Source of the DNA: a virus
Length of the DNA: 64,000 nucleotides
Virus record (IMG/VR): IMGVR_UViG_3300025015_000010
Coordinates: 64,001 to 128,000 of that record
Strand: one strand, 5' to 3'
Position numbers and translations under genes: made by a program. The notes beneath the pieces were generated by a model that ran no database searches, had not been told where the DNA came from, and worked only from the letters and a program-made list of their open reading frames with translations. Each line of letters begins with the position of its first letter. Positions within the stretch are counted from its first letter, which is position 1. Shown here in pieces: positions 2,558 to 34,395 of the stretch.

Positions 2558-2594
2558 CAAATAGCAGATGTCACATAACTATTTGGAGTTAGAA

Positions 2595-16225: not shown

Positions 16226-16247
16226 TTCCAGAGAAAGTAGGTAAGCC

Positions 16248-17164: not shown

Positions 17165-17165
17165 A

Positions 17166-17903
17166 ATGTCAAAACCATCTTATGCTCTAATCAACATAGC
17201 CCAGAAGTATTGGGAAATGATCGAGGCCTACAGCGATCTACCTTCAGGTCAGTTGCCTACTCGGGAAAACAGCCTGGGATGTGGGTCGTGGGGCTGTGCG
17301 TGGATGTCAGGCGATCCAAGATATGTGATCAAAATCAGCCGTGATCCAACAGAAGGCCCAACAGTAGCCGCGATACAGCATTTTGTAGGCAACCGTCAAG
17401 ATAGTTATCCAGGGTTGGCTATTATCAAGGCAGTTTGGCGGCTACCCGAGAAGATGGTCTACGGGGGTAAATCTCGGGATGTTTATGCTGTAGTGCGAGA
17501 AGCAGTCCAGCCTCTAGACTACCTTGGTTATCGTGGCAGGTCTAATTCAGATGATTATATCATACGTGAGACATCATTAGGCTTAACGCATTTGCGTGAT
17601 TATGTTAATGCAGGCATAGAATATAAGCAAGTGAAGAGAAATAAAGCCTGGTATTTTGATAAAATGAGAGATTCTGCTGTCGAGATGTACAATTACGAGC
17701 CTACCTATTACATAGCCGCAGCCTTAGAAGAACTACTCGATGCGGAAATTACATTGACTGATATACATCAAGGCAACATAGGATATCGTCTGATTGATTG
17801 GGATACAAATGGTAAGTTTGAACTTGCACCAAGCAATAGCCTACTGATCTTTGATTTTGGCCACTCAACTGTGCAGTTTGAAGTTCCTGTTTTGGGCGAG
17901 TGA
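17166..17903 (+). CDS. Ser/Thr-kinase-like protein
   Basis: LGCGSWG, VIKIS, DIHQGN, FDFG. Confidence 0.8.
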   Translation: MSKPSYALINIAQKYWEMIEAYSDLPSGQLPTRENSLGCGSWGCAWMSGDPRYVIKISRDPTEGPTVAAIQHFVGNRQDSYPGLAIIKAVWRLPEKMVYGGKSRDVYAVVREAVQPLDYLGYRGRSNSDDYIIRETSLGLTHLRDYVNAGIEYKQVKRNKAWYFDKMRDSAVEMYNYEPTYYIAAALEELLDAEITLTDIHQGNIGYRLIDWDTNGKFELAPSNSLLIFDFGHSTVQFEVPVLGE

Positions 17904-18631
17904 TGATTCTATATCACGGTACAACGCTTCAGAATCTACAGAGTATTTTAGAACACGGCTTGATAGCTGGTAAGGGAAATAGTCTGCACAGAACAAAGAC
18001 ACGCAGTATGTTGTTTCTTGCAGGCGATATTCAAGGTGCGTTTGTATATGCGTCACCGGATTGTTATGATTCTAGTCGTGCAGATAAGACGCCTGTAGTG
18101 CTCGAAATCATATTGTCAGATGCATCTAAATTAGAACCCGACTATGACGATATAGACATAGGCAGTGTTTTGGATTATTTAAGAGAATTGGCCGAAAGTT
18201 TGGATATAGACCCATTGGAAATCTCACTAGATACGCCACTAGATGATACTTTGTATGAGCGAGTCAGCAGCAGAATATACAGAGACAAGATGGATTACGG
18301 GTATACGGGCATACGAGTTGATACAAATGACAATTTGAGAACTTTGTATGTTGATCCACTTGTATTTTTGTATATTGCATTAGAAGATATAGACCCAGAA
18401 ATTTTGGACGACGGTACTATAGACTGGGAAGATTCAGGCCTACCTGGGCTGTGGACACGTCAGTACAGGTATAACGGTAAAATTCCGACCTCAGACATTA
18501 GAGCAGTATGGTCGCCAGAAGGCGTAGCACCTAGTAATGGGAGATTAATGTCGATCAAGAATTATGCATGCTGGTCCGATGATAGAACAGAGCCACAAAA
18601 GGTTAACATGATAAGAAATTTGGTGTGGTGA
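17900..18631 (+). CDS. ART-fold protein (YHGT / KptA-like)
   Basis: LYHGTTLQNLQSILEHGL, LFLA, YRYNGKIP. Confidence 0.7.
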   Translation: MMILYHGTTLQNLQSILEHGLIAGKGNSLHRTKTRSMLFLAGDIQGAFVYASPDCYDSSRADKTPVVLEIILSDASKLEPDYDDIDIGSVLDYLRELAESLDIDPLEISLDTPLDDTLYERVSSRIYRDKMDYGYTGIRVDTNDNLRTLYVDPLVFLYIALEDIDPEILDDGTIDWEDSGLPGLWTRQYRYNGKIPTSDIRAVWSPEGVAPSNGRLMSIKNYACWSDDRTEPQKVNMIRNLVW

Positions 18632-19395
18632 TGTTCGCTATCCATAGAGTTAACTATGATAACGTGTTGTCAGCCAGCGAGGTAGATGGTGTTGTTCGTG
18701 CTATCGAGCATACAGGATATATCTTGCCCCAGGCCGAGTTAGTTCGTCGAGGACTATCTGGTAATATGTGTTTTGGGTTAGACTACCTGGCAGGTGATTG
18801 CGAGTATGTGTTTTTAAAACCTGTTGCCGAGGATTGGCAAGGTTGGTTGAGACAGTTCAAGATCACGGACGCTTTTGTTTTTGATTTAGATGTGCTGTTT
18901 GAGCAGGGCGCGTTGTACGGATTAAAAGATTTACTGGAAGATTATAAGCGGCTAGCTTATGAAACACTACTAGACAGAATTGGTGTTAGATTCAGCGCGG
19001 CTTATGTGTCTATATTTTTTGATTTACTGTTAGTGGAAATAGACGATGTGCCTATGTCTAGCAGTGCTAAAAGATCCTATAGTCAGATGTCCTACGGTAG
19101 TAAAATGCTACTTGAAGAAGTAGTTGGCGATGTACTTAAGCAGGAATTAGGTAATAAAATACTGGACGGAGTAAGGTCTAGATGCACTGATGCACAAAAT
19201 GCGTCTAGACACGCGTCAAGAACTATTATGAGCAAAGATTTAATCTCGTTAAACAGGTTATTACAAGTAGCAATCAACGAAGATCGGAAATCACCGCACG
19301 TGCTCGCTTCAGAACTATGCTATGAACATGTATTAGGCAGAGAGGTTCTATTTCCAGGCCCGCTGCCAGTCAGCCTTGCAATAAGTTGTCCATGA
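18631..19395 (+). CDS. DarT-like ART paralog 1
   Basis: H..GYILP..DYLAGD.EYVFL..FVFD..DLL..Y..EVLFPGPLP. Confidence 0.6.
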   Translation: MFAIHRVNYDNVLSASEVDGVVRAIEHTGYILPQAELVRRGLSGNMCFGLDYLAGDCEYVFLKPVAEDWQGWLRQFKITDAFVFDLDVLFEQGALYGLKDLLEDYKRLAYETLLDRIGVRFSAAYVSIFFDLLLVEIDDVPMSSSAKRSYSQMSYGSKMLLEEVVGDVLKQELGNKILDGVRSRCTDAQNASRHASRTIMSKDLISLNRLLQVAINEDRKSPHVLASELCYEHVLGREVLFPGPLPVSLAISCP

Positions 19396-19412
19396 TGGTA
19401 GACTTAATATAG
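19396..19412 (+). promoter_or_regulatory. Class-2 promoter, separated from its gene by an IS
   Basis: TGGTAGACTTAATATAG, 16/17 identical to 31568-31584. Confidence 0.6.
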
Positions 19413-19427
19413 GTAAACAGCCCCTGG

Positions 19428-20600
19428 CTAAAGCCAGAGGCTTTGTGCCAACCGCAGCACACTCGGGTGGTTTACATCGCCCGTTGCAATATCGGCAGAC
19501 ATTGCAAGCCGTTCGTGATTCAACGCAGCGTTGACATCACTGTGCATTCGGCTAGCACACAGGAAACATTCAAAAAGGTGTTTAAGACGATGACCACGAC
19601 TGGAGCACTTAGAACACGTTTTGCTCGTGTACGCGGGGTTGACATAGATTATATACAACCCCGCTGCAAGAGCTTTGTACTCAATAAAAGTCTGAAGTTG
19701 TTTCCAGGCCCATCGATGGAGCCTCGTGCGCTCTCGTTTTCTAGCTTTGATCCTGTCTCGGATATGAGTCAAGTCTTCCATTGCGATGGCATTACAGCCA
19801 TGGGCAAGGGCCTCTTCGACAAGTTGCTTACTGACGACGTGATTCACATGGGTCATGTAACGACTTTCTCTGCCAGAGATCATGCTCAAGCGCTTTTTAG
19901 CGCCCTTACTACCGTTGGCTTGAAGACGTCTACGAAGACTCAAATAGCAATCACGGTCGTGTCTTACTTTGCCCCCTTGGAAAAGTTTACCAGAACTAGT
20001 TGCTGCCATGACATTTTCACCAAGGTCAATACCAAGAACCTTAAGTGTTTTAACTGGAACAATTTCTTTGTTCTCAAGTTCAAGGGCGAGATTAAAATAC
20101 CAAGTATTATTTCTACAGACAAGTTCGGCCTCTTTAGGCGTACCCGAGGCAAGATAGTCACTCTGAAACCTGGCTACGACCATAGGCACTTTAATGCGCC
20201 CAAGAATCGTGTACATCGAAAGCTCGGAACCTTTTATCGAGTACGTCCGTTTGTCATAATGTACGCTGCCGGTGGGTCTGAAGTTAATCGCAGGGATCGG
20301 TTTGTTCTTGGCAAACGGTTTTTTAGACACAAGATCGCTATAGCTTCCACAAACATTCTTTAGAGCATTGCATACCATTTGAGACCCTAGTTTTGATCGT
20401 TTACGTAAGTCATCATAGCTGAAATTATGGAGCCTAAAGTGATTCCAACAACGATTTTTAATTACAACAGGCACAATACTTTGACATGTCGATATAAACT
20501 CGGTCCTAGTGTCCAAGAGAGCCTGGGCCTGTCCACTTGTTGTGTCAAGTTTGATTGACACAGTTCTGAGTATTTTGTTCTTATTTTCGGTTTTTGACAT
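19428..20600 (-). CDS. tnpB: TnpB RNA-guided endonuclease
   Basis: GIDLG, MEDL, HSDVNAA, Zn ribbon. Confidence 0.93.
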   Translation of the reverse strand: MSKTENKNKILRTVSIKLDTTSGQAQALLDTRTEFISTCQSIVPVVIKNRCWNHFRLHNFSYDDLRKRSKLGSQMVCNALKNVCGSYSDLVSKKPFAKNKPIPAINFRPTGSVHYDKRTYSIKGSELSMYTILGRIKVPMVVARFQSDYLASGTPKEAELVCRNNTWYFNLALELENKEIVPVKTLKVLGIDLGENVMAATSSGKLFQGGKVRHDRDCYLSLRRRLQANGSKGAKKRLSMISGRESRYMTHVNHVVSKQLVEEALAHGCNAIAMEDLTHIRDRIKARKRERTRLHRWAWKQLQTFIEYKALAAGLYIIYVNPAYTSKTCSKCSSRGHRLKHLFECFLCASRMHSDVNAALNHERLAMSADIATGDVNHPSVLRLAQSLWL

Positions 20601-20991
20601 GCTCAAGCCTGTTAATATAGTTCTGGATTGTTTCTGCGCTAACACTGCCAGCAGTACCGACATAGTAAGATGGAGACCATAAGTGACCGCCCCACAGTTT
20701 GTTCTTGATCATCGGATGTTTCAGAAACAAGGATCTGGCTGTACGTCCTTTAAGGATTTGAATTGCACTGGCCACAGAAATCGCAGGAGGAATCGAAACG
20801 AACAAGTGAACATGATCCGGTTGAATTTCGATAGCAATAATTGGCCAGGCACACTCGTTGCAAATATTTCTGAGCAACGCTTCGAGACTGGTTGCTACAT
20901 CTTTGGTGAGAACTTGTTTTCTGTACTTAGGACACCATACAATGTGATATGCTGTTTGATAAGTGCAGTTGCGATTGCTTACGACATTCAT
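20581..20991 (-). CDS. tnpA: IS200 Y1 transposase
   Basis: YHIVWCPKYR, PDHVH, LWSPSYY. Confidence 0.95.
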   Translation of the reverse strand: MNVVSNRNCTYQTAYHIVWCPKYRKQVLTKDVATSLEALLRNICNECAWPIIAIEIQPDHVHLFVSIPPAISVASAIQILKGRTARSLFLKHPMIKNKLWGGHLWSPSYYVGTAGSVSAETIQNYINRLEHVKNRK

Positions 20992-21092
20992 TACCTTAAT
21001 TCTACACTATGTTTTGAATATTTTCAAGGTGATACCGTGTTGCTCGCCTTCCTCCCCTGGCTAAAGCCAGAGGTTTCCGGCGAGGTTTCGCT

Positions 21093-21488
21093 ATGAAAAT
21101 TATTACACATGCTTGGGACGATATTGACGACAGAGATAATCTTTTGAGTATAGTTAGTCAGGTTAGGGCAGATGCAGAACGTGAGTGGGTCACAAAAGAG
21201 TGCGATTCGGAAGGAAGTTGTATTATTTGTTCGGCTATGCTGGCCGATAAATTACGCGAGGCCGGGTTTACAGCCAGAGATGTTCACGGCGCCTATATGG
21301 CACCAAACAGGCTGTGGTTTAATGATAATAATGTGAGTAGGCATAATTTTCATGGCGCTCACCACTGGTTTGTAATAGTGGATGATTTCTACATCGTCGA
21401 TATAACGGCCGATCAGTTTCACAGAGGCGAAGATGGCTATGAGATTGTCATTTCGGACGTAAACGATTTTAAGCACTACGATTTTTAA
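21093..21488 (+). CDS. Papain/transglutaminase-like C-H-D protein
   Basis: GSC..CS, HHWF, IVDITADQF. Confidence 0.65.
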   Translation: MKIITHAWDDIDDRDNLLSIVSQVRADAEREWVTKECDSEGSCIICSAMLADKLREAGFTARDVHGAYMAPNRLWFNDNNVSRHNFHGAHHWFVIVDDFYIVDITADQFHRGEDGYEIVISDVNDFKHYDF

Positions 21489-21501
21489 TCTAGGAGAAAA
21501 A

Positions 21502-21894
21502 ATGTCAAACGGTTGGATCACTGAAGAAGATCATGCACTGCTATTAACAGTGTGTACAAGCTTGGCTAAGACATTCCATGGAAATATAGGCGAAGAGACC
21601 GAATTTAGATTCCGCCAACCCAATATTACTCGTTACATGCAGATAGATGAAGGGATCACACTGGGTGTTTCGTTGGCTGCCGACTCTCCAACTGAAGGTG
21701 ATATCGTTATCAAGTTTTGGATTACGCAGCGCGGAATCGACTACACTAAGTTTGGCCCGTCAGAGTTCGATCAGGCGCTAGAAGGTTGGTCGAGTTTACT
21801 GTACGCCCCAGACGTAAAGTCTGTGCCAGAAATGCGAAAAGACATTAAGGACTTTTTGAAGGAACTTCGCAGAGTGCGCAGAAGTTGGAAGTGA
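21502..21894 (+). CDS. Hypothetical protein
   Basis: AGGAG RBS. Confidence 0.7.
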   Translation: MSNGWITEEDHALLLTVCTSLAKTFHGNIGEETEFRFRQPNITRYMQIDEGITLGVSLAADSPTEGDIVIKFWITQRGIDYTKFGPSEFDQALEGWSSLLYAPDVKSVPEMRKDIKDFLKELRRVRRSWK

Positions 21895-21895
21895 A

Positions 21896-22351
21896 ATGAC
21901 CAAGTATTGGGGTCGTATGGGAGCTGGGGTGTTGTTTATGCACAAAAATAAAGTGCTTCTAACCCTGCGTAGCGACGAAGTCGAGCAGCCAGGTACGTGG
22001 GGAGTCCCAGGGGGAGCAGTGTCGCTAGATAGTTATGATGAGGTTTATACGCAGTCCAGCAGCGCAGGTAATATACAATTATCTGAAGACGCCATTTTTG
22101 ACTCTGCAATGCGTGAGTCGGCAGAGGAACTTGGAGCATTGCCAGACGACTACGAAGTGATGGATCATGTAGTTTACGCCGATCAGAAATTTCAGTATCA
22201 TACATTTTTCGTCGCAGTAGACATTAAGTGGCCGGTAACCCTGAATTGGGAAAATACCGATTATGGCTGGTTCAGTAAGAAGAAGTTACCTAGCCCACTG
22301 CATTTTGGAGTAGAGTACTTGATTGATCAGCGCCCAGAGTTTTTTCGATGA
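21896..22351 (+). CDS. Nudix hydrolase
   Basis: WGVPGG...AMRESAEELG, with an insertion in the Nudix box. Confidence 0.88.
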   Translation: MTKYWGRMGAGVLFMHKNKVLLTLRSDEVEQPGTWGVPGGAVSLDSYDEVYTQSSSAGNIQLSEDAIFDSAMRESAEELGALPDDYEVMDHVVYADQKFQYHTFFVAVDIKWPVTLNWENTDYGWFSKKKLPSPLHFGVEYLIDQRPEFFR

Positions 22352-22872
22352 TGACGCTAGAACAATTTGGAAGTTTTGAGCATGTATTCACGGACAGTTT
22401 TAGGCAAGCCGTGGAAGATATTGATGCCGCGCCTAGGCAAGACAGATATCCTTATGTATACACAGAGTTTATATCAGAAATTCGAGAGGCATTAAACCCC
22501 ATTTTCCATGTTGTTATTCCGGACGCTGTTTTAGATATATGGGTTCTTCTTTTCACCTCAGATGATAAGATAGGCGGTTGGGTAGAGTATACAGGTGGCG
22601 AACTAACATTGGCGCAGAATACGCATAGACCGAGAGCTAGATTTGTTGAGGTATTTTTCCACGAGGTTCAGCATTTGATTGATCTGTATCACGGCTACCC
22701 ATACATAGACTTAGCTGGATTTAGCCCAGAAACTGTAAGTGACGAGAGTTTGTATGTAAGTTCATCAAAAAAGTACAGAATGCAGTTAACTGAGCGCAGA
22801 GCTAGGCGAGCAGAGACAGGAATTGTACGCAAAGTATACAAGTACTATGTAAGGAACAGTTTTCCATCATGA
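22348..22872 (+). CDS. Zincin-like metallopeptidase
   Basis: FFHEVQHLID...ERRA. Tandem paralog of 22869. Confidence 0.72.
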   Translation: MMTLEQFGSFEHVFTDSFRQAVEDIDAAPRQDRYPYVYTEFISEIREALNPIFHVVIPDAVLDIWVLLFTSDDKIGGWVEYTGGELTLAQNTHRPRARFVEVFFHEVQHLIDLYHGYPYIDLAGFSPETVSDESLYVSSSKKYRMQLTERRARRAETGIVRKVYKYYVRNSFPS

Positions 22873-23372
22873 TGACGCTAGAGCGGTTCAGTTATTTTAC
22901 TAATGTATTTACGCCAGAATTTCAGACTGCTGTTCATAAAGGTGCATTCAACGGGTCTAAGTACAGTTATTACTATACTGCTGTGGCCGAGCCCGTGATG
23001 ACAGTGCGAGAAGCTTTAACCGGCTGGTTTCATGCAGTAATACCGGACGAAGTTTTAGATATTATGGTTTGGTTTGAGCCAGACAGGTATGATGGCAACG
23101 GAAATATAAGATATCATAATGGTGAGTTAGTTATGGGATATAAACCCAGCATGCGTCCTTTCGATCTTGTCAGAGTGTTCTTTCACGAGATTAAGCACTT
23201 GATCGATGTGTATAATGGTTATCCCTATGTGGATCTTGGCGGGTATAGAGAAAGTTTTGGTAAAGAGACACAAGAGGAAGAATGGGACTTGCTATGGGAG
23301 CGTCGAGCTAGGTATGCAGAAACAGCTTTGATCAAACAAGCATATAGACTATGCCAGAAAGGTCTGAGATGA
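22869..23372 (+). CDS. Zincin-like metallopeptidase
   Basis: FFHEIKHLID...ERRA. Confidence 0.72.
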   Translation: MMTLERFSYFTNVFTPEFQTAVHKGAFNGSKYSYYYTAVAEPVMTVREALTGWFHAVIPDEVLDIMVWFEPDRYDGNGNIRYHNGELVMGYKPSMRPFDLVRVFFHEIKHLIDVYNGYPYVDLGGYRESFGKETQEEEWDLLWERRARYAETALIKQAYRLCQKGLR

Positions 23373-23727
23373 AAATAAATCCAACACCGACAATCTACAA
23401 ACCGACGGACAAGCCCAAGGAAGACTTAAAAGAAAAGCCGTGCAAGAAACCATCGAGTTTCTTCAAGGCTTTGCAAAAAGAAATCAAGAAAGGCAGGAAG
23501 TAATGGACGCTAGAAAAGACGTTCAAAATGCGCGCGACGCCGTTCAGTATGCTGCATCTGTATGGACTCGGCTGGCTTTAAGTGCCTAGTCATGAAGACG
23601 GAGGTGTGGCAGAAAATATATCTGATCTACTTACAGAGGCTTTGAGGTTAGTTCGATTGGCGTCGTCTAGGGCTAATGGTCTTGCTAAAGTTAATTACGA
23701 TCCAGATTTACTGTTTCCGGATTAAAT

Positions 23728-24111
23728 ATGGACGTTCCTGCATATCTATACCACGGTACTTTTAGGAGCCTTGTGCCAAGTATTTTGGAGCATGGCTTGT
23801 TAGCTGTGCCGAAAGATTGGCGTATATGGCCTAATTTTTCTAAAGAAGATTCTGTATATCTGGCCGATAATTACAGGTCAGCATTGGAATGGGCAAGAGA
23901 CGGACTTGGGCAAATCGAGTTAGCCCTAACGGATGGCACAGACTCTTTCGGCTATGGCACCGGATTGATGCTGAACGTCTTGAGGATAGAAACGAGAGGC
24001 TTGTATTTGTGGCTGCTGATAGAAGAAGCGCCAGTTAAATGGGGTGAGTACGGTAGAGAATACAGATATCGCGGCGATATTCCTCCAGAATTAATCACCG
24101 TACTGGATTAA
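23728..24111 (+). CDS. ART-fold protein (YHGT)
   Basis: YLYHGT..SILEHGL, VYLA, EYRYRGDIPP. Paralog of 26253. Confidence 0.72.
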   Translation: MDVPAYLYHGTFRSLVPSILEHGLLAVPKDWRIWPNFSKEDSVYLADNYRSALEWARDGLGQIELALTDGTDSFGYGTGLMLNVLRIETRGLYLWLLIEEAPVKWGEYGREYRYRGDIPPELITVLD

Positions 24112-24115
24112 ACAA

Positions 24116-24478
24116 ATGGAAGATCCTAATAGCAGCCTAGCAGACTTGATAAAAGAACAGTATCGCAAAGGTGTGATTATTGTTAGTAAGTTGGCTATAG
24201 GCACTAAACTCGAAGTTAAAACAACGAATGCAGTCTACCAAATCGAAGTAGTCGATCCGAAGAAACAGAAGCTGCGAATCCAAGGGGGATCGCAGTTCGC
24301 TAAGGTTACAGATGCTGAGCTAACTGGCTCGACATGGGGCGGGTCAGCTTTATGGGCTGATCGGATCGGCCGAGATATGTATATGGAATTATTCGCCAGA
24401 GGGATAGCACTCGCAACGCTGCAAGTCGAGAGTGTTGTAATCAAGGGCGATAAATGGGAATACGCAATGGAGTGGTGA
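24116..24478 (+). CDS. Hypothetical phage protein
   Basis: Operon ORF (GSTWGGS motif). Confidence 0.65.
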   Translation: MEDPNSSLADLIKEQYRKGVIIVSKLAIGTKLEVKTTNAVYQIEVVDPKKQKLRIQGGSQFAKVTDAELTGSTWGGSALWADRIGRDMYMELFARGIALATLQVESVVIKGDKWEYAMEW

Positions 24479-24500
24479 TTATTGTGGACAAAATAAATAT

Positions 24501-25673
24501 ATGATATTAGGACACAAAATCAGGCTGGACCCTACATGCAGGCAAGTTAAGTTATTTAACCGAGCTTGCGGCGTTGCACGTTTCACATATAACTGGGCAT
24601 TGGCCGAGTGGAATAAACAGTACGATGCCGGTCAGAAGCCAAGCATATCTAATCTTATAAAACAATGGAATAAGATTAAGGGCGCGGAGTTTCCTTGGGT
24701 TTATGATTCACCTAAAGGCGCTAATCAGAGACCATTCACTTGTCTGAGGGCTGCGTTCTCCGGGTTCTTTAAGAAGCAGACAAAATACCCAAAGTTCAAG
24801 AAGAAATTTGTTCACGACTCATTTTATGTCGAAAATGATAAGTTCCATTTTATTGGCGATGCCCACGTACGTTTGCCTAAAATCGGCACGGTAAAAACTT
24901 GTGAGAAGTTACGTTTTACGGGTAAGATTATGGGCGCAGTAGTGTCTAGAATCGCAGATCGCTGGTTTATTGCAGTCCAAGTCGATGTTGGCGACTACCA
25001 TAAACCCAGAACCGGCAATGGCATAGCAGGTACAGATTTGGGGCTTATCACAGCAGCTACGATTGCTGTTAGTGATACGAAAACGATCAAGATAAAATCG
25101 CCGAAGCCGCTAAAGAAAGCATTATCAAAGCTTAGACGAATTAACCGGAAATTTTCAAGACAACAGAAAGGATCAAAACGCCGAGAAAAGACCCGGCGCA
25201 GACTGGCTAGACTGCATTTTCGAGTCAGTAACATTCGTAGAGATTTTACACAGAAGCTTACAACTCGACTCTGCCGCGAGAACCAAGTGGTAGTTATTGA
25301 GGATTTGAACGTGAAAGGCATGCTTAGCAACCATTGTCTTGCGCGTTCTTTGAATGACATTGGATTCTCTGAAATCAGACGCGAGCTTGGCTACAAGAAT
25401 CCAATCTATGATATGCAACTCGTTGTTGCAGATCGCTGGTTTCCGTCTTCAAGACAGTGTAGAATGTGTCTACATGTCAACAAAAATCTTGCACTCAGGG
25501 ATCGTATCTTTGTGTGTCCGAAGTGTAATCATACAGAAGACAGAGACGATCAGGCAGCATATAATTTACGTACCCTCGGCTTGAGGGAAATTCACGCTCA
25601 GGGAGAGGCCATGGCTTCGAGCACCCTCGACGAACTGAGAACTAACCCGTACTCACAAATGAGTACAATTTAG
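24501..25673 (+). CDS. tnpB: Solo TnpB (IS607-associated type), no transposase
   Basis: MILGHKIRLDP HTH, GTDLG, IEDL, DRD. 3' hairpin GTACTCA-CAAA-TGAGTAC, probable right end at ~25680. Confidence 0.9.
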   Translation: MILGHKIRLDPTCRQVKLFNRACGVARFTYNWALAEWNKQYDAGQKPSISNLIKQWNKIKGAEFPWVYDSPKGANQRPFTCLRAAFSGFFKKQTKYPKFKKKFVHDSFYVENDKFHFIGDAHVRLPKIGTVKTCEKLRFTGKIMGAVVSRIADRWFIAVQVDVGDYHKPRTGNGIAGTDLGLITAATIAVSDTKTIKIKSPKPLKKALSKLRRINRKFSRQQKGSKRREKTRRRLARLHFRVSNIRRDFTQKLTTRLCRENQVVVIEDLNVKGMLSNHCLARSLNDIGFSEIRRELGYKNPIYDMQLVVADRWFPSSRQCRMCLHVNKNLALRDRIFVCPKCNHTEDRDDQAAYNLRTLGLREIHAQGEAMASSTLDELRTNPYSQMSTI

Positions 25674-25699
25674 AGAGCAGTATAGGATGGAATGGTGAT

Positions 25700-26266
25700 A
25701 TGCATCTCATAAACACTGTCCCTGTTGAAGGTCATCCAGAGCTAAAGCTAGCTTTGTGGGTAAGAATGTTTTATGGCGAAGTTGCGTACAAGGATTTTCC
25801 AGGTACTATCGAAGTAGGTTCCGCAAGATTTGCACTGTTGCCTAAACGAATAGATAGACGGGCTATTGAGCGGTCAAATGGCTCTCAAATGATATCGGAG
25901 GTGGGTCATATTGGCATCGGTTTGTTCAGGCCAGTATATTCGAGTTATCGAAAAATGCTAGACAGTTTTGATTACGAGCACGAACTTTTTGCGATGGTGA
26001 AATATGCAGAAATTACCGACCCAGAAGCACGCAAACACGGTTTGGGCTCTGCCATGTACATTACGGCTGTACGAGAACTTGGTGTGTTATTAGCCGATAC
26101 GACCTGGAGTGAAGGTGCCGAAAAGCTGTGGGAAAAATTACACACTAGGCACAAGTGTGTGTCGGTCGAGACTTGGGACCAGATATTTTTGACGCCTATA
26201 GCCATATGGAATTGTAGTAAATCAAGGCAGAATAAGTTTTGGAGGCAGGTCGATGAAATTGCCTGA
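25700..26266 (+). CDS. GNAT-like protein
   Basis: ARKHGLGSAMY, SEGAEKLWEKL. Confidence 0.7.
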   Translation: MHLINTVPVEGHPELKLALWVRMFYGEVAYKDFPGTIEVGSARFALLPKRIDRRAIERSNGSQMISEVGHIGIGLFRPVYSSYRKMLDSFDYEHELFAMVKYAEITDPEARKHGLGSAMYITAVRELGVLLADTTWSEGAEKLWEKLHTRHKCVSVETWDQIFLTPIAIWNCSKSRQNKFWRQVDEIA

Positions 26267-26609
26267 ATATCTCTATCACGGTACGTACAGTACACTGGTC
26301 GAACATATTATGGCTAACGGTTTGATCCGTGTGCCCAGGGATTGGCGAATCTGGCCGAGTCATGCCGAGATCGAGTGTGTCTATTTGACTAGTGATCCAC
26401 ACAATGCGCTGCACTGGGCGCTCCAGGGACTCGATAAACTTGATTATATGGATAACTATCGCAGTAAATACAATATTCTGCCAGTAGCGCTTCAAATTAA
26501 TAAGGCAGGCATAAACATGGATTTGTTATTAGAAGATACCAACATGAGTAACAAACAAGATTTTTGCTACGCGGGTGACATTGAGCCGATGTGGATCGAG
26601 GTAGTTTGA
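26253..26609 (+). CDS. ART-fold protein (YHGT)
   Basis: YLYHGT, VYLTSD, YAGDIEP. Confidence 0.72.
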   Translation: MKLPEYLYHGTYSTLVEHIMANGLIRVPRDWRIWPSHAEIECVYLTSDPHNALHWALQGLDKLDYMDNYRSKYNILPVALQINKAGINMDLLLEDTNMSNKQDFCYAGDIEPMWIEVV

Positions 26610-27316
26610 TGGGCAGAATAATTGCAATTCATGACGTGGCATATAATAAACAGAGTGTGTCTAATAAGCTGATTCGTCAGATACTAGATTATGGCTCGTT
26701 ATTGCCAGCATCGATGCGGGATCGTTGGAAGCAGATTGGCGCGTTCGATTATTTAGCCGGTGACGCTGATTACGTATTTTTGTCTTTGTATGACGGGCTC
26801 GATGACTCCGAGTACGGTATTGGATTTAATAAGTCGGCATTTTGGTTTGATGCCGAGCACTTGATCAAGCTAGGCGCAATAGTTAGAGACTATGATCTGT
26901 TAGATGATTACTTCATTGTAGCCGAAGACGCCGCGCTTGAAATTATCAATTTCGACGTCACAGGTAATCGATATAAAAACATTGAAGACCACGTAGATGT
27001 CTTAGACCTGATACAATGCGCCGTGATGCACAACATAAATAGTAGGCTTGATCCTAAGGCTTTGGTTGATTATTCCGGTAAACAAGCATATCCATGGTAT
27101 AAGAAACTCGCCAAAGATGGCTTGATATCTCCAATGCTAGATGCCGTTCACTGTGCGCTAGTAGAATATAAAAAGCAGTATAATCACGTAGGTAAAGATG
27201 CAATTAGAGAGCTACATAATGCAATGGACCATGCCACAGGCACAGAAATCTTATGGCACGGTCCACTTCCGCTGTTATATGCTCTTCCAGAATCCCCTGC
27301 TTTTCGGGTGAAGTGA
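26609..27316 (+). CDS. DarT-like ART paralog 2
   Basis: AIH, GSLLP, DYLAGDADYVFL, FWFDA, EILWHGPLP. Confidence 0.6.
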   Translation: MGRIIAIHDVAYNKQSVSNKLIRQILDYGSLLPASMRDRWKQIGAFDYLAGDADYVFLSLYDGLDDSEYGIGFNKSAFWFDAEHLIKLGAIVRDYDLLDDYFIVAEDAALEIINFDVTGNRYKNIEDHVDVLDLIQCAVMHNINSRLDPKALVDYSGKQAYPWYKKLAKDGLISPMLDAVHCALVEYKKQYNHVGKDAIRELHNAMDHATGTEILWHGPLPLLYALPESPAFRVK

Positions 27317-27927
27317 TGTATGCAGTCCACAGCATAACTTACCATAGAAACTCAGATCCAGACGAGATCATTCATCAGATTCTTGCCACGGGTAAACTAT
27401 TGCCGCTCGCAGATCGTCTGCCAGTAGACGAGACAGGTATGCAGCCCGTTGATGTGTTTGCCGGGGATCATTATTTTGTTTTCCTTCGAGTTCGAGATTC
27501 TTGGCCTAACCAGTCTTCGGCATTTGTATTCGATGCCGAAGATTTGATAGCGCGTGGAGCAGCCTTTAGAAAAAGCGATCTGTTGCTGAGTTATTGGGCA
27601 GAAGCAAAGTCAGTAATAGACGAATTTAGATTGATAGATGCTTTTAATGCTACCGAGTGCGGTATATTACAAGACTTGATGCACTACGTCGATGATAAGT
27701 TTGAAGAACCATATATGCGTTATTATGGGGATTCCCAGGCCCGTACTGTGGTAAGGATATTGCAAGCTAGGCTGGGTCAGATTGCCGAAGAAGGTACATA
27801 CTACGGTAAAGAGGCCCTGAGATTGCTGTCCGACCCAAATTCTAGGTCAGGATATAGCGAGTTAGTCTGGCGAGGTCCGCTGCCAATTAGTTTAGCACTT
27901 CCAGAATCACCTGTGTTTCAAAGGTAA
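27316..27927 (+). CDS. DarT-like ART paralog 3
   Basis: AVH, GKLLP, DVFAGDHYFVFL, FVFDA, ELVWRGPLP. Confidence 0.6.
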   Translation: MYAVHSITYHRNSDPDEIIHQILATGKLLPLADRLPVDETGMQPVDVFAGDHYFVFLRVRDSWPNQSSAFVFDAEDLIARGAAFRKSDLLLSYWAEAKSVIDEFRLIDAFNATECGILQDLMHYVDDKFEEPYMRYYGDSQARTVVRILQARLGQIAEEGTYYGKEALRLLSDPNSRSGYSELVWRGPLPISLALPESPVFQR

Positions 27928-27930
27928 ACT

Positions 27931-28452
27931 ATGAGCATAACATTCTATGCATCAGAAGCAAAATATCATTATCAGCGCATACTTTGTACTTCACCAGAAA
28001 TGGGCCTGACATGTACCCCGTCAAGTCGTTGTGGATATTGTGAGGATGGTTGGACGGAAGAACCTGTGTACGAAATTGAGCCACTGAATTTGTCCAATAG
28101 AAATGCCAAGCAAATTATGACTATTTTGGGTCTACCAAGCACAGACGAAGGATCTATAGATAATTCAGATTTAGATCATCTGAAAAGGCGGATCGACTAC
28201 TTGACGTCCGATAAACGGTCTCTGGTTCATCAAGGCGGCTATGATGAGTTGATGCGTTACGCTTTCGATACTGTAGACTATCGAGATATAGATTTAGAAG
28301 AAGATATGTTTGGACAAGTAGTAGCGACCCCGATTGGTCCACGTGTTATTGATGTAGGCATGAGTTACGAATATCTTGTACGCAGGTTGTTAGAACTGCG
28401 CGATTTGTTTGATCAAGCTTGGCGATCTGGTTATTCGATAGGTTGGTACTAA
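27931..28452 (+). CDS. Hypothetical protein with Cys cluster
   Basis: Operon ORF. Confidence 0.65.
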   Translation: MSITFYASEAKYHYQRILCTSPEMGLTCTPSSRCGYCEDGWTEEPVYEIEPLNLSNRNAKQIMTILGLPSTDEGSIDNSDLDHLKRRIDYLTSDKRSLVHQGGYDELMRYAFDTVDYRDIDLEEDMFGQVVATPIGPRVIDVGMSYEYLVRRLLELRDLFDQAWRSGYSIGWY

Positions 28453-28453
28453 G

Positions 28454-29212
28454 GTGGCCAAAAAATCACATTTACGTAAGCACAGTCCGAAAGCCGCTTG
28501 GGACATACAATCCTGGCTGGCAAGTTATCTAAATACAGACGTGGATATCTATGATTTTTCGTGGACTATCCGTGAGTTCTTAGCAGATCAAGAAATTGAG
28601 TCCGATGCTGAGTATGTTGAAGATTTGACTGAGCAACAGCAGGTCGAATTCAAAGATTGGCTGTTGAGGGATAGTAAAATAGACAACATCTGTCAGGGTC
28701 AAGAAGTAGACTGTCCATCATATTTAATGTTCAGGGACGCTCGGGTACTCCCTAAAGGTACTTGGCTAGTACATTTTTCTAGCAAGTATTTTAGCCAGTT
28801 TAAGTACGGTTCAAACTATGAGCGGTTGCATCTGTCAACATGGTTCATTAAAAAGCATAAAGTTAAGTCTAACAATCTCAGTGATGAAATTGGTGCTGCT
28901 GAAGTAGTATTCGGTTTTGCTTTTGATACGGATCAGATGAATCGTATTATATGTCATGGTCACAGGTTTGGTAAGCACGTTAAGCTATTCCAATGTGATA
29001 TGGCAGTAGAAGCATACCATACTAGCGACGGCTATAGACAGGTTATTTTCCCTCTTGGCAGTGAGTATAACGTGATTGATCTATCCGAGGTATATAGTAA
29101 TGGCAACATTGATGTTGAGTTAAGTGGCGGCGACGTAATCAGGGTAGACAGTGTCTCAGAAGTTATTGATCTAGCAGCACATGGCAGAATCGAAGTGAGT
29201 AATTACACATGA
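28454..29212 (+). CDS. Acidic protein with possible C-terminal ART fold
   Basis: WLVHFS...FGFAF...QVIF pattern. Confidence 0.45.
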   Translation: MAKKSHLRKHSPKAAWDIQSWLASYLNTDVDIYDFSWTIREFLADQEIESDAEYVEDLTEQQQVEFKDWLLRDSKIDNICQGQEVDCPSYLMFRDARVLPKGTWLVHFSSKYFSQFKYGSNYERLHLSTWFIKKHKVKSNNLSDEIGAAEVVFGFAFDTDQMNRIICHGHRFGKHVKLFQCDMAVEAYHTSDGYRQVIFPLGSEYNVIDLSEVYSNGNIDVELSGGDVIRVDSVSEVIDLAAHGRIEVSNYT

Positions 29213-30189
29213 GACCTATTTTTGCAATGCCTAAATATAGACCGTTCTCGGCCGTTATAACCAGCCACAGAGATGGCTGGCTATATGGTCATTCTGGTGA
29301 TGAGTATGATGTGTATAGACCTTTGCATATGACCTTAGACGGTTGGATGTACGCTACGCATTCATTTGGTCAAGTACTGACCAATGGTAAGTCTGTCTTT
29401 GGTGCAATCAGAAAGTCAGGTTATTTGTTGCCGGAAATAGACCGTAATTCAGCTACGCTCAAACGTAGTCCCACGGGGCAAGGCTCTATGTTTCCAATCG
29501 ATGCGATTGCTGGTGATGATAAGCTAGTATTTTTTCGCCCAGGATCACCACTCCCTGGCGCTGGTGCTTTCTTCTTCGCCGCCAGGTCGTTGATACTGGA
29601 TTTCGGAGGTAGAGTAGGCACGGATATATTAGGCGATTACAAGAGAATATTGGAAAAAGCGATGGCCGATTTTGGGTTACCATACAATAAATGGACTCAT
29701 GCACGAGAGAGCATAAAGCATAAAGAACTCGATTTGCTGGAACAGATGAAAGGTGAGCTAACTGGAGACGAAGCCTACAAAATGCGTGACGAGATTTTTA
29801 CAAAGTTTGATTCTGATCTTCGTTGGGCTATCCTAGATTTGCCACAAGAAATTGTTGAGGAATTCTATGTGCGCGTGCAAAGGTTTCGTGATACTGAACG
29901 ATCAGGTGGACTAGAAGCAGCAGATTTCGTGGACAGACTAGAGGCTCAGCAGGCTATTGGTTACCCAGGAGCGGCAATTAACTATTCAGAAAGATACGAG
30001 ATCACCGTCGAAGGTCGCGTGCCTATTGATAGCGCATTTGGGTGGATGTATAACACTACAAACGGAGTAGACTTTGGTTTTCGAGAGGAATTCTATCCGT
30101 ATTACGAGTATGTTGAATTGTTAGATAGAGCAGTCGCTAGCAGATTGAACCCAGATACGTATTTTCTTGAGGATGTGGTGAACATATGA
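29209..30189 (+). CDS. DarT-like ART paralog 4
   Basis: ATH, GYLLP, DAIAGDDKLVFF, DIL.DY, EITVEGRVP. Confidence 0.55.
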   Translation: MRPIFAMPKYRPFSAVITSHRDGWLYGHSGDEYDVYRPLHMTLDGWMYATHSFGQVLTNGKSVFGAIRKSGYLLPEIDRNSATLKRSPTGQGSMFPIDAIAGDDKLVFFRPGSPLPGAGAFFFAARSLILDFGGRVGTDILGDYKRILEKAMADFGLPYNKWTHARESIKHKELDLLEQMKGELTGDEAYKMRDEIFTKFDSDLRWAILDLPQEIVEEFYVRVQRFRDTERSGGLEAADFVDRLEAQQAIGYPGAAINYSERYEITVEGRVPIDSAFGWMYNTTNGVDFGFREEFYPYYEYVELLDRAVASRLNPDTYFLEDVVNI

Positions 30190-30965
30190 GATCAGTCTAT
30201 CATATTGTAGGCCTAAGCTACTGCCAGCCTGATCCCTCGGCAGCAGATAGTTATTATGATCAAGAAATCGAACAGCCAATTATAGAAACCTTTGAGGCCG
30301 TGTTAGCCAAAGGCGAATTACTGGCACCGAGTCAATTCGGTAGTATTGCGAGTCCGACACTGATCGATGCTATGGCAGGGGATAATCATTATGTTTTTCT
30401 CGGAGAGAGTCTAACTGGGCCTGCAAATTATGAGTGCCCAGAAGAATACTCCTACGGATTTGCATTTGATGCCTATCAGCTAATTGAGCTAGGCTGTGGC
30501 GTTCGATTTGGCGATTTGATTGTGGCTTATGAGCACGAAATTATGAATTTTGTAGGCGATGCGCCCTGGAGTCAGAATGATCTTGAGAAAGTTAACCAGT
30601 TTTTGGCCAATGGCAGCCTAGATCCGGTAGAAGAAATGATGGCTCTTAAAGGCCATGAGTATGAGATAGAAACGAAGAAAGCACGTAGGCGCGAAAAAGA
30701 GTTGATGGAGATAGTAGGTGTTCTCGAATCTCCACCTGATGAATTGCGTCATAGACTACAACAGATAGCTGATCAGAATACGATGTTCGGCAACGCGGCT
30801 ATTGAGGCACTAGAAAGTCATAGAGATATGGAGTTTGTGACGCCAGAGAAACTAAGTCTTACAGCTATGATTCACGTTATTATGGCAGGTAGAAAAGTTA
30901 GTTGGGACGAGTTGACAAGTCTGTATGATGTGAAAGTAATTAGACAGCGCGAGCTTTGGGAATAA
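30186..30965 (+). CDS. DarT-like ART paralog 5
   Basis: VYH, GELLA, DAMAGDNHYVFL, FAFDA, MEFV. Confidence 0.55.
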   Translation: MRSVYHIVGLSYCQPDPSAADSYYDQEIEQPIIETFEAVLAKGELLAPSQFGSIASPTLIDAMAGDNHYVFLGESLTGPANYECPEEYSYGFAFDAYQLIELGCGVRFGDLIVAYEHEIMNFVGDAPWSQNDLEKVNQFLANGSLDPVEEMMALKGHEYEIETKKARRREKELMEIVGVLESPPDELRHRLQQIADQNTMFGNAAIEALESHRDMEFVTPEKLSLTAMIHVIMAGRKVSWDELTSLYDVKVIRQRELWE

Positions 30966-30968
30966 CAT

Positions 30969-30996
30969 TTGACTTTGCAATAAACTATGCTATAAT
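30969..30996 (+). promoter_or_regulatory. Sigma70 promoter, leaderless transcript
   Basis: TTGACT...TGCTATAAT, with the ATG 6 nt downstream. Confidence 0.75.
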
Positions 30997-31002
30997 TTTG
31001 GC

Positions 31003-31557
31003 ATGCTTAAACCAGGTATAACTTATGCAGAAGAACTTCAGCACGCTTTAGCTCTTGCCGAGAACTGCAAATGGCTACTGGCTAAAAAGCTGAAGCAGGA
31101 ATATATGCCAGTAGTTAAGCCACAAATTGTTTGGAATACTAGACTTGGGACCACGGCTGGTAATTGCCGTACAAGAAACAAGCGCGACTATGCCAGAATG
31201 TCTCATGTAATCGAACTTAACCCTAAGCTTCTGATCGATGCCATAAAATTCAAAAGAACTCTAGTACACGAGTTAGCCCACGCAGTGACTATCGAATTGT
31301 GGCCCAGGTCTAAGCATCACGGGCGTGAGTGGAAAGCTGTAATGAGGTACATGCTAGCAGAGCCAGCAAGGTGTCATTGTTATGATACGAGTCATATCAA
31401 GCGCAGGCAGACTAGAGCCGAGATTCAATGCTCCTGCGGGAAGATATTCACACTCAGTAAGAACTGTTATACCAGGATGACCAACGGCACTACGGGCTAT
31501 AGACACAAGGAATGTAAGCGCAATCTGATCGATGCAAAATTTGTCAGGTACGTTTAG
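31003..31557 (+). CDS. SprT-like metalloprotease
   Basis: TTAG, IELN, HELAH, HGREWK, C-terminal Zn ribbon. Confidence 0.9.
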   Translation: MLKPGITYAEELQHALALAENCKWLLAKKLKQEYMPVVKPQIVWNTRLGTTAGNCRTRNKRDYARMSHVIELNPKLLIDAIKFKRTLVHELAHAVTIELWPRSKHHGREWKAVMRYMLAEPARCHCYDTSHIKRRQTRAEIQCSCGKIFTLSKNCYTRMTNGTTGYRHKECKRNLIDAKFVRYV

Positions 31558-31564
31558 TTGTGAA

Positions 31565-31584
31565 TAGTGGTAGACTTAAGATAG
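31565..31584 (+). promoter_or_regulatory. Class-2 promoter
   Basis: TAGTGGTAGACTTAAGATAG. Confidence 0.6.
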
Positions 31585-31607
31585 GCAGTGTTTAGAAAGG
31601 AAAAATC

Positions 31608-31856
31608 ATGGCAAAGCGAAGAAGTTCAAAGAAGTTATCTTATCGTGAGCAGCTAATAAAGAAAATCAAAGCCGCTTGGAAGAAATATGATCACGCTTAT
31701 ACCTCTGGTGATGCTAGAGAAGCTAAGTTAGAGGCAATCTACTGCACTGAAAACCTGGGCGGCGTAGCCTGTGCTTCCTGGAAAACATACAGAGACTCCT
31801 GGGCAGGTAAAGAGTGGATTAGGCGGGAAGAAATAAGGCAAAATACGAGAGCATAG
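31608..31856 (+). CDS. Small basic hypothetical protein
   Basis: AAGGA RBS. Confidence 0.65.
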   Translation: MAKRRSSKKLSYREQLIKKIKAAWKKYDHAYTSGDAREAKLEAIYCTENLGGVACASWKTYRDSWAGKEWIRREEIRQNTRA

Positions 31857-31865
31857 AGCTACTTA

Positions 31866-32579
31866 ATGATTAACGGCATCAAATTTTTAGCATGGCATAG
31901 TGTTGGTAGTGACGATGTTAAAGCTACAATCAAGCAGATAGTCAAGCGAGGTTTCTTGCTGCCTGCTTCGATGCGCACAGGTAGAACTTGCAAGATTCAG
32001 GTCGAGGACTATCTAGCCGGTGATGCCGCATTTGTGTTTATGCATGTAGGCGCTTTTAGTGAAATACATCAAGAAAACCAGTTTATGACTGGGTATAATC
32101 ATAGGAATTTCTATTTTGACGCAGTTGAACTGATCGAGATGGGCGCAATACTGAGGCACCACGATCTATTATTTGAGTACAAGAAGGTCATGTGTAGTAT
32201 TGTCAATAATTTTCTTGGCAGCAATTTAGATCGCAATCAGACCGCATATTTTCTTGAGTATGCTGCCTATATGAGTGGCGTAGACGTTAATTGTCGCGAT
32301 TCTTGGTCGTTCGATTGTTACCGTGAGTTAGCAGATAATTTCATAGCGGGTTTAAGCCGACTACAAGGTGAGCATAGATTAGGTGAAATGTTCGATAAGG
32401 TGTATAAAAAGTGTTTGAAAATCCGAGCCCAGAACGAGCATGTAGGCGACAAGGCAATAAGCATGCTTGAAAGTATGTATGATCACAGAAATCTTTCGAA
32501 TGTAGAAATCATCTGGGAAGGCCCACTCCCGACGTATCTAGCTTTGCATGACTCACCTGCTTTTAGGACGGCACAGTGA
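31866..32579 (+). CDS. DarT-like ART paralog 6
   Basis: AWH, GFLLP, DYLAGDAAFVFM, FYFDA, EIIWEGPLP. Confidence 0.6.
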   Translation: MINGIKFLAWHSVGSDDVKATIKQIVKRGFLLPASMRTGRTCKIQVEDYLAGDAAFVFMHVGAFSEIHQENQFMTGYNHRNFYFDAVELIEMGAILRHHDLLFEYKKVMCSIVNNFLGSNLDRNQTAYFLEYAAYMSGVDVNCRDSWSFDCYRELADNFIAGLSRLQGEHRLGEMFDKVYKKCLKIRAQNEHVGDKAISMLESMYDHRNLSNVEIIWEGPLPTYLALHDSPAFRTAQ

Positions 32580-32649
32580 TGGCTAACGAGCACATTAATA
32601 AAAATTTGCATATCTATGCTCCTGGATCGCCATATAGAGGAAATGCTAG

Positions 32650-33231
32650 ATGAGGCTGTTAGGCTATCATGGAACACACGCTGTGTTCAGGAATTTTGAG
32701 AAGCGCGGAGGTGTTCGTCAGATACTATTTGCTAGTTTCAAGGTTCCGTCGAATGGTTTTTTCTTTTCTGACAATCTCGATGACGCGGCTGGTTTCGGGC
32801 CTAATGTGATTGTTGCTAATCTAATTTTGCGACGGCCATTAGTATTTCCCGAGCACGATAAGCACGCCGCGTTCTGGAACAATGAATTCTCTTACTTTTT
32901 CGGTCAAGATATGGACGAAGCGGCTACAGTGTGGCAGAGCGATTTGGATTATATTTTTGCCCCGCTCATCCAAGAAGATCATGGCAAGTTCGTCGTTGAT
33001 CTAGGCTCAACTAGGTACTATGTTGATCCTAACGACATAGATTGGTCAGAGTTTGCAGTTCTGAGTGGCGGCGTTGAATGGAATATATTGGATAATCCGG
33101 ATGTTGTGGTCCGCATGCAAGAACGTGGCTATGATGGAACAGTGGTGTATGAGCCAGGAACATATAGTGGCTATTCTTATTTTGTGATTGATCAAAGCCA
33201 GATAGAAATTTTAGAGATAGTCCGAAGATGA
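32650..33231 (+). CDS. ART-PolyVal-like ADP-ribosyltransferase
   Basis: YHGT, GFFFS, A..FG, GYDG, QI. Confidence 0.78.
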   Translation: MRLLGYHGTHAVFRNFEKRGGVRQILFASFKVPSNGFFFSDNLDDAAGFGPNVIVANLILRRPLVFPEHDKHAAFWNNEFSYFFGQDMDEAATVWQSDLDYIFAPLIQEDHGKFVVDLGSTRYYVDPNDIDWSEFAVLSGGVEWNILDNPDVVVRMQERGYDGTVVYEPGTYSGYSYFVIDQSQIEILEIVRR

Positions 33232-33747: not shown

Positions 33748-33936
33748 TAGGCTTATGCCTTATTTACATGTAAGGTTCCAGTTAGCCTAAACGCCCCGAT
33801 AAATAGCTAACAAAAGCCGTTTAGGGCACTAATGCCAGGATGTCTAGTCTTGGTTCTTATCGACGGCCAAGTCCTGTCCAAGGGGTTTTACGGTGTTTTG
33901 AGTAACATAGACGACCATCTTTATAGGGAGGTCGTC

Positions 33937-34347: not shown

Positions 34348-34390
34348 TAGACACATTCCTCGGAGTAATTTCCGAGGAATGTGTCTATTA
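34345..34390. terminator. Long perfect hairpin between convergent genes
   Basis: TAATAGACACATTCCTCGGA-loop-TCCGAGGAATGTGTCTATTA. Confidence 0.75.
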
Positions 34391-34395
34391 CTTAG

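Follow-up and report, generated by a model that had tools for sequence, protein, structure and literature searches.

The stretch of DNA analysed here, hereafter the window, is 64,000 nucleotides long and covers bases 64001-128000 of the 168,734-base IMG/VR virus record IMGVR_UViG_3300025015_000010, whose completeness is estimated at 77%. The record resembles a large tailed-phage genome, and the part of the window between 5 and 34 kb is dense with small plus-strand genes that all run in one direction, at a G+C content of about 43-44%. Six of these genes, here called paralogues A to F, make up a protein family of their own and probably encode ADP-ribosyltransferases (ARTs) of a kind that has not been curated so far. 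An original prediction, made from the DNA letters alone, had described them as a six-member paralogous family with a signature like that of the ART DarT, and all six plus-strand open reading frames (ORFs) that it named are present (lengths in amino acids, aa):

18631..19395, plus strand: paralogue A, 254 aa; keeps the His, D-x-x-A-G-D, F-x-F-D, D-L-L-x-x-Y and the terminal Glu (…REVLFPGPLP) and is without G-x-x-A
26609..27316, plus strand: paralogue B, 235 aa; reference for residue numbers, modelled with AlphaFold2
27316..27927, plus strand: paralogue C, 203 aa; shortest insert (70 aa), second AlphaFold2 model
29209..30189, plus strand: paralogue D, 326 aa; common core with extensions of ~45 aa at the N-terminus and ~50 aa at the C-terminus
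30186..30965, plus strand: paralogue E, 259 aa; Glu within …MEFV…
31866..32579, plus strand: paralogue F, 237 aa; nearest to B (E-value 1.8e-27)

The six are true paralogues, as had been proposed: in an all-against-all phmmer comparison of the 288 ORFs of the window, their pairwise E-values range from 1.8e-27 to 6e-4, and no seventh member is found among these ORFs. Profiles built from the six and from 57 relatives likewise detect no further copy in the window or in the whole 168.7-kb record. The ATG starts used here for A, B and C (18631, 26609 and 27316) match the N-termini of homologues better than do the starts of the longest ORFs (18625, 26591 and 27253). The start of C overlaps the stop of B and the start of E overlaps the stop of D, which suggests that translation is coupled within each of these two pairs. 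The N-terminus of paralogue E (…VYHIVGL) is similar to that of a branch of the family found in bacteria and metagenome-assembled genomes (MAGs).

Conserved motifs and a variable helical insert

Aligned with MAFFT, the six proteins share 13 invariant columns in their N-terminal half (G29, L32, D51, A54, G55, D56, V60, F61, F82, F84, L89, D100 and Y105 in paralogue A numbering), in addition to L211 and A250 near the C-terminus. This six-sequence alignment reproduces the motifs on which the family had been proposed, namely G-x-L-L-P, D-x-x-A-G-D-x-x-x-V-F, F-x-F and D-L-L-x-x-Y. Two further residues of the proposed signature, a His near the N-terminus and a Glu near the C-terminus, are found in all six copies when these are aligned together with outside homologues, and the G-x-x-A motif that follows the insert in five of them, the copy at 18631 being the exception. 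In paralogue B, whose numbering is used from here on, the residues concerned are H8, G29, D47, G51, D52, Y55, F57, F78, F80, D96, Y101, G195, A198 and E213, with the signature loop and the Glu encoded as follows:

26747..26779, plus strand: codons 47-57 of B, the signature loop leading into strand 3 (D-Y-L-A-G-D-A-D-Y-V-F)
27245..27247, plus strand: codon of E213 of B, which opens the penultimate strand (213-217) and is invariant in 57 sequences

Across a 57-sequence alignment at ~20-30% identity, D52, L85, D96 and E213 are invariant, and H8, D47, G51, F78, F80, Y101, G195 and A198 are conserved in at least 90% of sequences. A broader alignment of 139 sequences retains the D, G-D, F, F, G, A and E positions, with F57 conserved in at least 90%.

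Between D-L-L-x-x-Y and G-x-x-A lies a helical insert, which the original prediction had put at 80-120 aa; the insert itself is confirmed, at a length of 70-93 aa. Its variability is also borne out, as it diverges faster than the core among orthologues (insert 31-77% identical, core 75-85%) and among paralogues (insert 13-29%, core 24-45%) alike. Some natural members of the family (P0133, P0077) do without the insert altogether. Because the insert occupies the position of the ADP-ribosylating turn-turn (ARTT) loop, with which ARTs recognise their substrate, diverges fast and is naturally dispensable, it looks like a module for target selection.

Predicted fold

AlphaFold2 models were built for paralogue B from the 57-sequence alignment (predicted local distance difference test, pLDDT, 86; predicted template modelling score, pTM, 0.84) and for paralogue C from 139 sequences (pLDDT 89, pTM 0.85). 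Both display the same order of elements. Strand 1, ending in the His, is followed by a helix, a short strand at G-x-L-L-P and the D-x-x-A-G-D loop; then come strand 3 (Y-V-F-L), strand 4 (F-x-F-D), a short helix and strand, the insert, modelled as four to six helices, the strand opened by the Glu and finally G-P-L-P. In model B, H8 lies in strand 5-9, Y55 and F57 lie in strand 55-60, and E213 opens strand 213-217. The predicted models thus carry the features of the H-Y-[EDQ] clade of ARTs: a His on strand 1, an aromatic residue on strand 3 and an acidic residue opening strand 5 of the fold, here the penultimate strand.

In an exhaustive VIA-align pass over 48,161 PDB representative chains, the best match of both models is DarT. 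Model B matches DarT entry 7omv with a Z of 7.8 (135 aligned residues, root-mean-square deviation, rmsd, 4.2), ahead of 7yk3 (7.4), 7omu (6.7) and 8baq (6.4), all DarT, and then Tpt1, OspC3, CopC and SopF. For model C, four DarT entries lead with Z of 8.7, 8.2, 7.7 and 7.3 over 116-124 residues at an rmsd of 3.3-3.6 (122 aligned residues and an rmsd of 3.3 for the best), followed by OspC3 (6.7), CopC (6.0), SopF (5.6) and Tpt1 (5.4), with scabin and TreX lower. All matches to model C that span residues 1-203 are ARTs; the remainder cover residues ~88-159, which is the insert, and are generic helical proteins. Matches of MarR type, considered as a possible DNA-binding winged helix, were rejected, as they involve the insert only, at a Z of ~5, and are taken here as a generic helical-bundle likeness.

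The Foldseek comparison with DarT that had been suggested as a check also ranks DarT first for both models, weakly (E-values of 0.04-0.08, probability up to 0.89). A structure search of the ESM Atlas returns clusters of DarT, OspC and MuF-DUF3626. When features from a language model are searched instead, clusters of OspC and DarT come up along with giant-virus orphans. BFVD yields weak matches only, including Bacillus phage G proteins and granulovirus ORF30/32. From the two models, by way of VIA-align, Foldseek, the ESM Atlas and the feature search, we predict a split beta-sheet ART core to which DarT is nearest, as the original prediction had anticipated. The weight of this assignment comes from the agreement between methods and from the whole-domain matches, all of which belong to one small superfamily.

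Distribution beyond the record

Searched with a profile of the family, 1.84 billion cluster representatives yield 260 proteins at E-values of at most 1e-3, of which 129 are at or below 1e-10. Pfam has zero matches for the six paralogues, for 57 relatives and for 10 members of an N-terminally extended subgroup; PHROGs, NCBIfam and PADLOC return nothing meaningful for the family, and profile searches of the PDB sequences are without a match. The family is hence undescribed, as had been supposed, in that it is absent from four curated libraries of hidden Markov models (HMMs), those of Pfam, PHROGs, NCBIfam and PADLOC. Measured against these libraries and the literature searched, the family, its acidic loop, its helical module at the ARTT position and its tandem recurrence appear to be new. 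The family may overlap with an uncurated family of the Aravind group (e.g., 'p0068-like'), and the ART superfamily itself, its occurrence in phages and its presence there in multiple copies were known before.

Other searches returned less. The IMG/VR search that had been proposed, run with paralogue B and with the six-sequence alignment, finds no further viral relatives, and megablast of the region against a phage collection finds no match. A word-index homologue search yields just five proteins, all without a name; a scan of genome contigs with P0012 gives no match, and a second such scan gives three MAG loci.

L009, a syntenic metagenomic contig, holds one-to-one orthologues of five of the six paralogues at 60-82% identity, including that of A at 60% and that of D with 327 aa, together with the same adjoining NUDIX gene and small ART-like genes. 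Since these five have one-to-one orthologues, the expansion predates the split of the studied phage and L009, and each copy has been maintained separately. Further members occur in phage-like contigs, sometimes as a tandem pair (L007, L011), and in MAGs of Anaerolineae, Chloroflexi and Paceibacterota. In a Paceibacterota MAG, two tandem members of 341 aa (L014, 2583-3608 and 3618-4643, plus strand) stand beside ankyrin-repeat genes. One Anaerolineae MAG copy (L012, 3201-3986) contains two in-frame TAA stops and is therefore either a pseudogene or affected by sequencing errors.

In addition to solo phage genes, the family is found in multidomain giant proteins, in several copies and alongside known partner domains:

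P0007, 5358 aa: three tandem full copies with RadC-JAB
P0097, 1973 aa: one copy with an amidoligase and RadC
P0109, 1523 aa: three to four copies with a trypsin-like peptidase
P0077, 6513 aa: two copies

These giants are polyvalent proteins of phages and conjugative elements as described previously (PMC5512222), and the delivery of such giant proteins with the virion is taken from that work.

Neighbouring genes

The six genes share the window with other ART-like genes, with genes for domains known from polyvalent proteins, with mobile elements and, elsewhere in the window, with a DNA methyltransferase, an RNA ligase and a CCA-adding enzyme; the NUDIX, SprT-like, M48 and lysozyme genes are dispersed over the co-directional block of the six:

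17900-18631, plus strand: minimal-ART candidate of a second paralogue family, 243 aa
23728-24111, plus strand: minimal-ART candidate of the same family, 127 aa
26253-26609, plus strand: minimal-ART candidate of the same family, 118 aa
32650-33231, plus strand: ART-PolyVal-like gene after paralogue F, 193 aa; sub-threshold (E-value 4e-6, 28 bits where 31 are required)
31003-31557, plus strand: SprT-like zincin, between paralogues E and F
21896-22351, plus strand: NUDIX hydrolase
10344-11246, plus strand: M48 peptidase
33228-33773, plus strand: glucosaminidase-type lysozyme
639-1757, plus strand: DNA methyltransferase
50618-51763, plus strand: Rnl1-type RNA ligase
52680-53930, plus strand: tRNA nucleotidyltransferase (CCA-adding enzyme)
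19428-20663, minus strand: TnpB/IS605 OrfB-type gene, one of three in the putative effector block
24501-25673, plus strand: TnpB/IS605 OrfB-type gene, the second
3858-5015, plus strand: TnpB/IS605 OrfB-type gene, the third

The members of the second paralogue family start with L-Y-H-G-T…G-L, end with Y-R-Y-x-G-D-I-P and have orthologues in L009. Their sub-threshold Pfam matches are to the PARP catalytic domain (E-value 1.3e-3) and Tpt1/KptA (0.02), and they are probably minimal ARTs of another family. The ART-PolyVal HMM (PF18760) matches none of the six or their 57 relatives, and its sole weak match in the record is the gene at 32650-33231. P0133 (588 aa) consists of an insert-less copy of the six-member domain fused to an ART-PolyVal-like domain, and this fusion links the neighbouring genes F and 32650-33231 in the manner of a Rosetta stone. 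The SprT-like zincin domain is a hub in polyvalent proteins; no modifying domain is more frequent in these than the ART, of which one protein can have up to 12 (PMC5512222). ARTs are encoded by >40% of jumbo phages, with at least 10 in Bacillus phage G (PMC9503650).

Several further features of the window are recorded here in their own right. The RNA ligase, the CCA-adding enzyme and the DNA methyltransferase, an equipment of RNA-repair type, coexist with many ART-like genes in one phage, and a gene for an AAA+ protein is also present. At the site of the TnpB copy at 24501, L009 has a 146-aa gene, so that this insertion is specific to the studied phage. Three near-identical plus-strand ORFs of ~270-345 aa (2568-3605, 41489-42481 and 42611-43423; phmmer E-values from 1e-146 to 1e-198) look like copies of one transposase, a fragment of which lies at 38219-38428. 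Local duplications are frequent in the block, and two pairs of small plus-strand paralogues have no family match (22348-22872 with 22869-23372, E-value 1e-32; 14552-15103 with 16652-17164, E-value 2e-29). A promoter and terminator scan of 15000-34500 gives counts no higher than the shuffled expectation. Two near-consensus sigma-70-type promoters in short intergenic gaps (30969-30996 and 20594-20621, plus strand) match at 11 of 12 positions, and one of the two has an extended -10 TG; overall promoter counts are not above chance. The one at 30969-30996 lies directly 3' of paralogue E and 5' of the SprT-like gene.

Proposed mode of action and alternatives

The explanation we favour, and on the predicted models consider probable, is that the six genes represent an uncurated family of the ART superfamily, of the H-[Y/F]-E type and structurally nearest to DarT, which serves the phage as a set of host-modifying effectors. 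The family, its conservation, its predicted fold, its tandem copies and its occurrence in polyvalent proteins rest on computed results, whereas NAD+ use and catalysis, like the role of the insert, the timing and the targets, are what we infer. NAD+ would be bound in the cleft of the split beta-sheet, with its adenosine part held, by analogy with DarT1 and DarT2 (PMC11543638), by the strand-1 His (H8, at the adenosine ribose) and by the backbone of G29-x-L (at the adenine). The nicotinamide would stack on the strand-3 aromatics Y55 and F57, and the invariant E213 would stabilise the oxocarbenium intermediate, driving NAD+ cleavage. The acidic loop ahead of strand 3 (D47 and G51-D52), which would replace the NAD-binding loop of DarT, could either position the phosphates and ribose or deprotonate and thereby activate the acceptor. 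Choice of the acceptor would fall to the bundle of helices, 70-93 aa long, that fills the ARTT site, where DarT binds its DNA. With an insert of its own in every diverged copy, the set of six would ADP-ribosylate different host macromolecules, be they nucleic acid or protein, so that the phage gains control of the cell or neutralises its defences. In this scheme, the 17.9-33.2 kb block, comprising the six ARTs, the other ART-like genes and the SprT-like and NUDIX genes, would be the unlinked equivalent of a polyvalent effector, because its domain types are those that are strung together in polyvalent proteins (PMC5512222).

A more specific proposal, possible though unlikely in our estimation, is that the phage wields DarT-style chemistry. 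The six enzymes would then act on nucleic-acid bases or on distinct host targets, to each of which a separate helical module at the ARTT position would direct its enzyme, with the D-x-x-A-G-D loop taking the place of an Arg as the proton-abstracting element and activating the acceptor by another catalytic route. In DarT, that Arg of the NAD-binding loop is R51 in DarT2 and R52 in DarT1, where an Asp also takes part in proton abstraction (PMC11543638).

Less likely again is that the six are ART-fold enzymes acting on small molecules, be it as NAD+ glycohydrolases or phosphorylases or as destroyers or modifiers of immune signals derived from ADP-ribose. In its favour, NADases and NAD+ phosphorylases do occur in the superfamily (PMC9503650), the family keeps its His and Glu, and the block also contains a NUDIX gene. 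However, six copies with fast-diverging inserts at the acceptor loop fit a diversification towards macromolecules better, the tandem copies in polyvalent proteins likewise favour macromolecular targets, and the nearest structures, DarT, OspC3 and SopF, all act on macromolecules.

That the six are genuine DarT toxins, which would ADP-ribosylate thymidine or guanosine of single-stranded DNA as DarT2 and DarT1 do, seems quite doubtful to us. DarT is the top structural match of both models, and the order of motifs in the family (H … G-x-L … G-D-x-x-x-x-aromatic … E-h-h-h) parallels that of DarT (Y-H-I-x-H … G-x-L … G-D-Y-V-P-F-Y … Q-A-E-F-L-V). Yet the DarT HMM, PF14487, has no match anywhere in the record at E-values up to 10 and none in the 57 relatives. 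We also compared the family, by hhalign, with a profile of 15 genomic DarT loci from the phylum of MAG G002 (titled Chloroflexi bacterium), which gave a local probability of 1.2% over 21 columns (helix 1 and G-x-L) and nothing in global mode. The loop Arg, invariant in this 15-sequence DarT alignment (R43 of A7), has no conserved counterpart, as there is no invariant or near-invariant Arg in the 57- or 139-sequence alignments of the family, and a 70-93 aa helical bundle stands in place of the DarT ARTT loop. Neither the 77%-complete record nor the flanking genes contain a Macro domain, NADAR not having been searched for. Given the null HMM and profile results, the missing loop Arg and the missing Macro partner, the family lies outside the DarT family. 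The description of the six as DarT-like therefore holds for predicted shape and motif order and fails for family membership. The D-x-x-A-G-D motif, which the original prediction did not recognise, has in its G-D a plausible DarT counterpart when the motifs are compared by eye: G-D-Y-V-P-F-Y-F of DarT and G-D-x-x-Y-V-F of the family would both place an aromatic residue five positions past the Asp, on strand 3, and by numbering offsets Y71 of DarT2 would fall at that aromatic position.

We regard it as very unlikely that the six are inert ART-fold binding proteins, for instance decoys or inhibitors of NAD-dependent defence proteins of the host. The canonical strand-3 Tyr is variable (Y/F/L and others), as this explanation would have it; the invariance of E213 and D52 and near-invariance of H8, D47 and G51 at 20-30% identity are, on the other hand, the usual signature of an active site, and these residues are retained in all six copies of the window. 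Least likely of all is that the ART likeness is a prediction artefact or a convergent small alpha/beta arrangement with an unrelated fold and function, for which the Z below 9, Foldseek E-values above 0.01, TM-scores below 0.5 and lack of any sequence or profile signal to an ART could be cited, but two paralogue models, two aligners, two structure libraries and an embedding search converge on ARTs, the full-length matches of model C are all drawn from that tiny share of the 48,161 chains, and the conserved His and Glu lie on the strands where ARTs have them.

Several observations nevertheless weigh against our favoured explanation, that of an uncurated ART family of host-modifying effectors. 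No sequence-level link to a known ART emerges from Pfam, PHROGs, NCBIfam, PADLOC or the PDB sequences, the hhalign comparison with the DarT profile is null, and the strand-3 Tyr is not strictly conserved. Models B and C come from overlapping alignments and are not fully independent, Z values of 7-9 are middling by VIA-align's own scale, and the Foldseek E-values exceed 0.01. As the 77%-complete record has yielded no Macro domain and no NAPRTase-type NAD+ salvage gene, the genomic context for ADP-ribose chemistry appears to be limited to the adjoining ART-like and NUDIX genes.

ADP-ribosylation is a main currency of phage-host conflict, as exemplified by Alt, ModA and ModB of T4, by DarTG of the host and by the ART domains of polyvalent proteins. 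To this the present analysis adds an uncatalogued family with hundreds of diverged members, repeatedly arranged in tandem, whether as neighbouring genes or as domains of one giant protein. If the proteins are active, the ART repertoire gains a catalytic loop of a distinct type and a target-recognition insert that is modular and can be swapped, and a single phage would offer six natural specificity variants for mapping how large phages modify their hosts. A curated HMM of the family would also annotate a recurring 'hypothetical' domain of polyvalent proteins.

Comparison with known systems

Among proteins of viruses with eukaryotic hosts, granulovirus ORF30/ORF32 and the Tupanvirus and mimivirus orphans of the DUF5846 and DUF5863 group resemble the family weakly in BFVD and Atlas searches (E-values of ~0.01-1), and the baculovirus/iridovirus ORF28 family has been described as related to DarT-like ARTs (PMC9503650).

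The ADP-riboxanases OspC3 and CopC, together with SopF, form a second tier of whole-domain structural matches (Z of 5.6-6.7) that lack sequence similarity to the family. They have the ART fold and enter a target cell as effectors that modify specific host proteins. Unlike the phage family, however, they are eukaryote-directed effectors of type III secretion, with calmodulin or ARF cofactors and with ankyrin domains.

ART-PolyVal / Tox-ART-HYD2 (PF18760) resembles the family in its setting, as it occurs in several copies per protein in the polyvalent proteins of phages and conjugative elements (PMC5512222). The two differ in the active-site acid, which is Glu in the family and Asp in ART-PolyVal (H-Y-D), and in their motifs and the large insert.

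The best structural match of both models remains DarT, represented by DarT2 of Thermus sp. 2.9 and M. tuberculosis and DarT1 of E. coli C7. In DarT and the family alike, strand 1 ends in a His, a helix leads to G-x-L, a G-D is followed five residues on by an aromatic residue in strand 3, and a Glu opens a hydrophobic strand near the C-terminus (PMC11543638). The family departs from DarT in having an acidic D-x-x-A-G-D loop in place of the loop bearing the conserved Arg, and in filling the ARTT site with a helical bundle of 70-93 aa. Whereas DarT forms a toxin-antitoxin pair with DarG (Macro/NADAR), the present family is encoded six-fold by a phage and recurs in tandem within polyvalent proteins.

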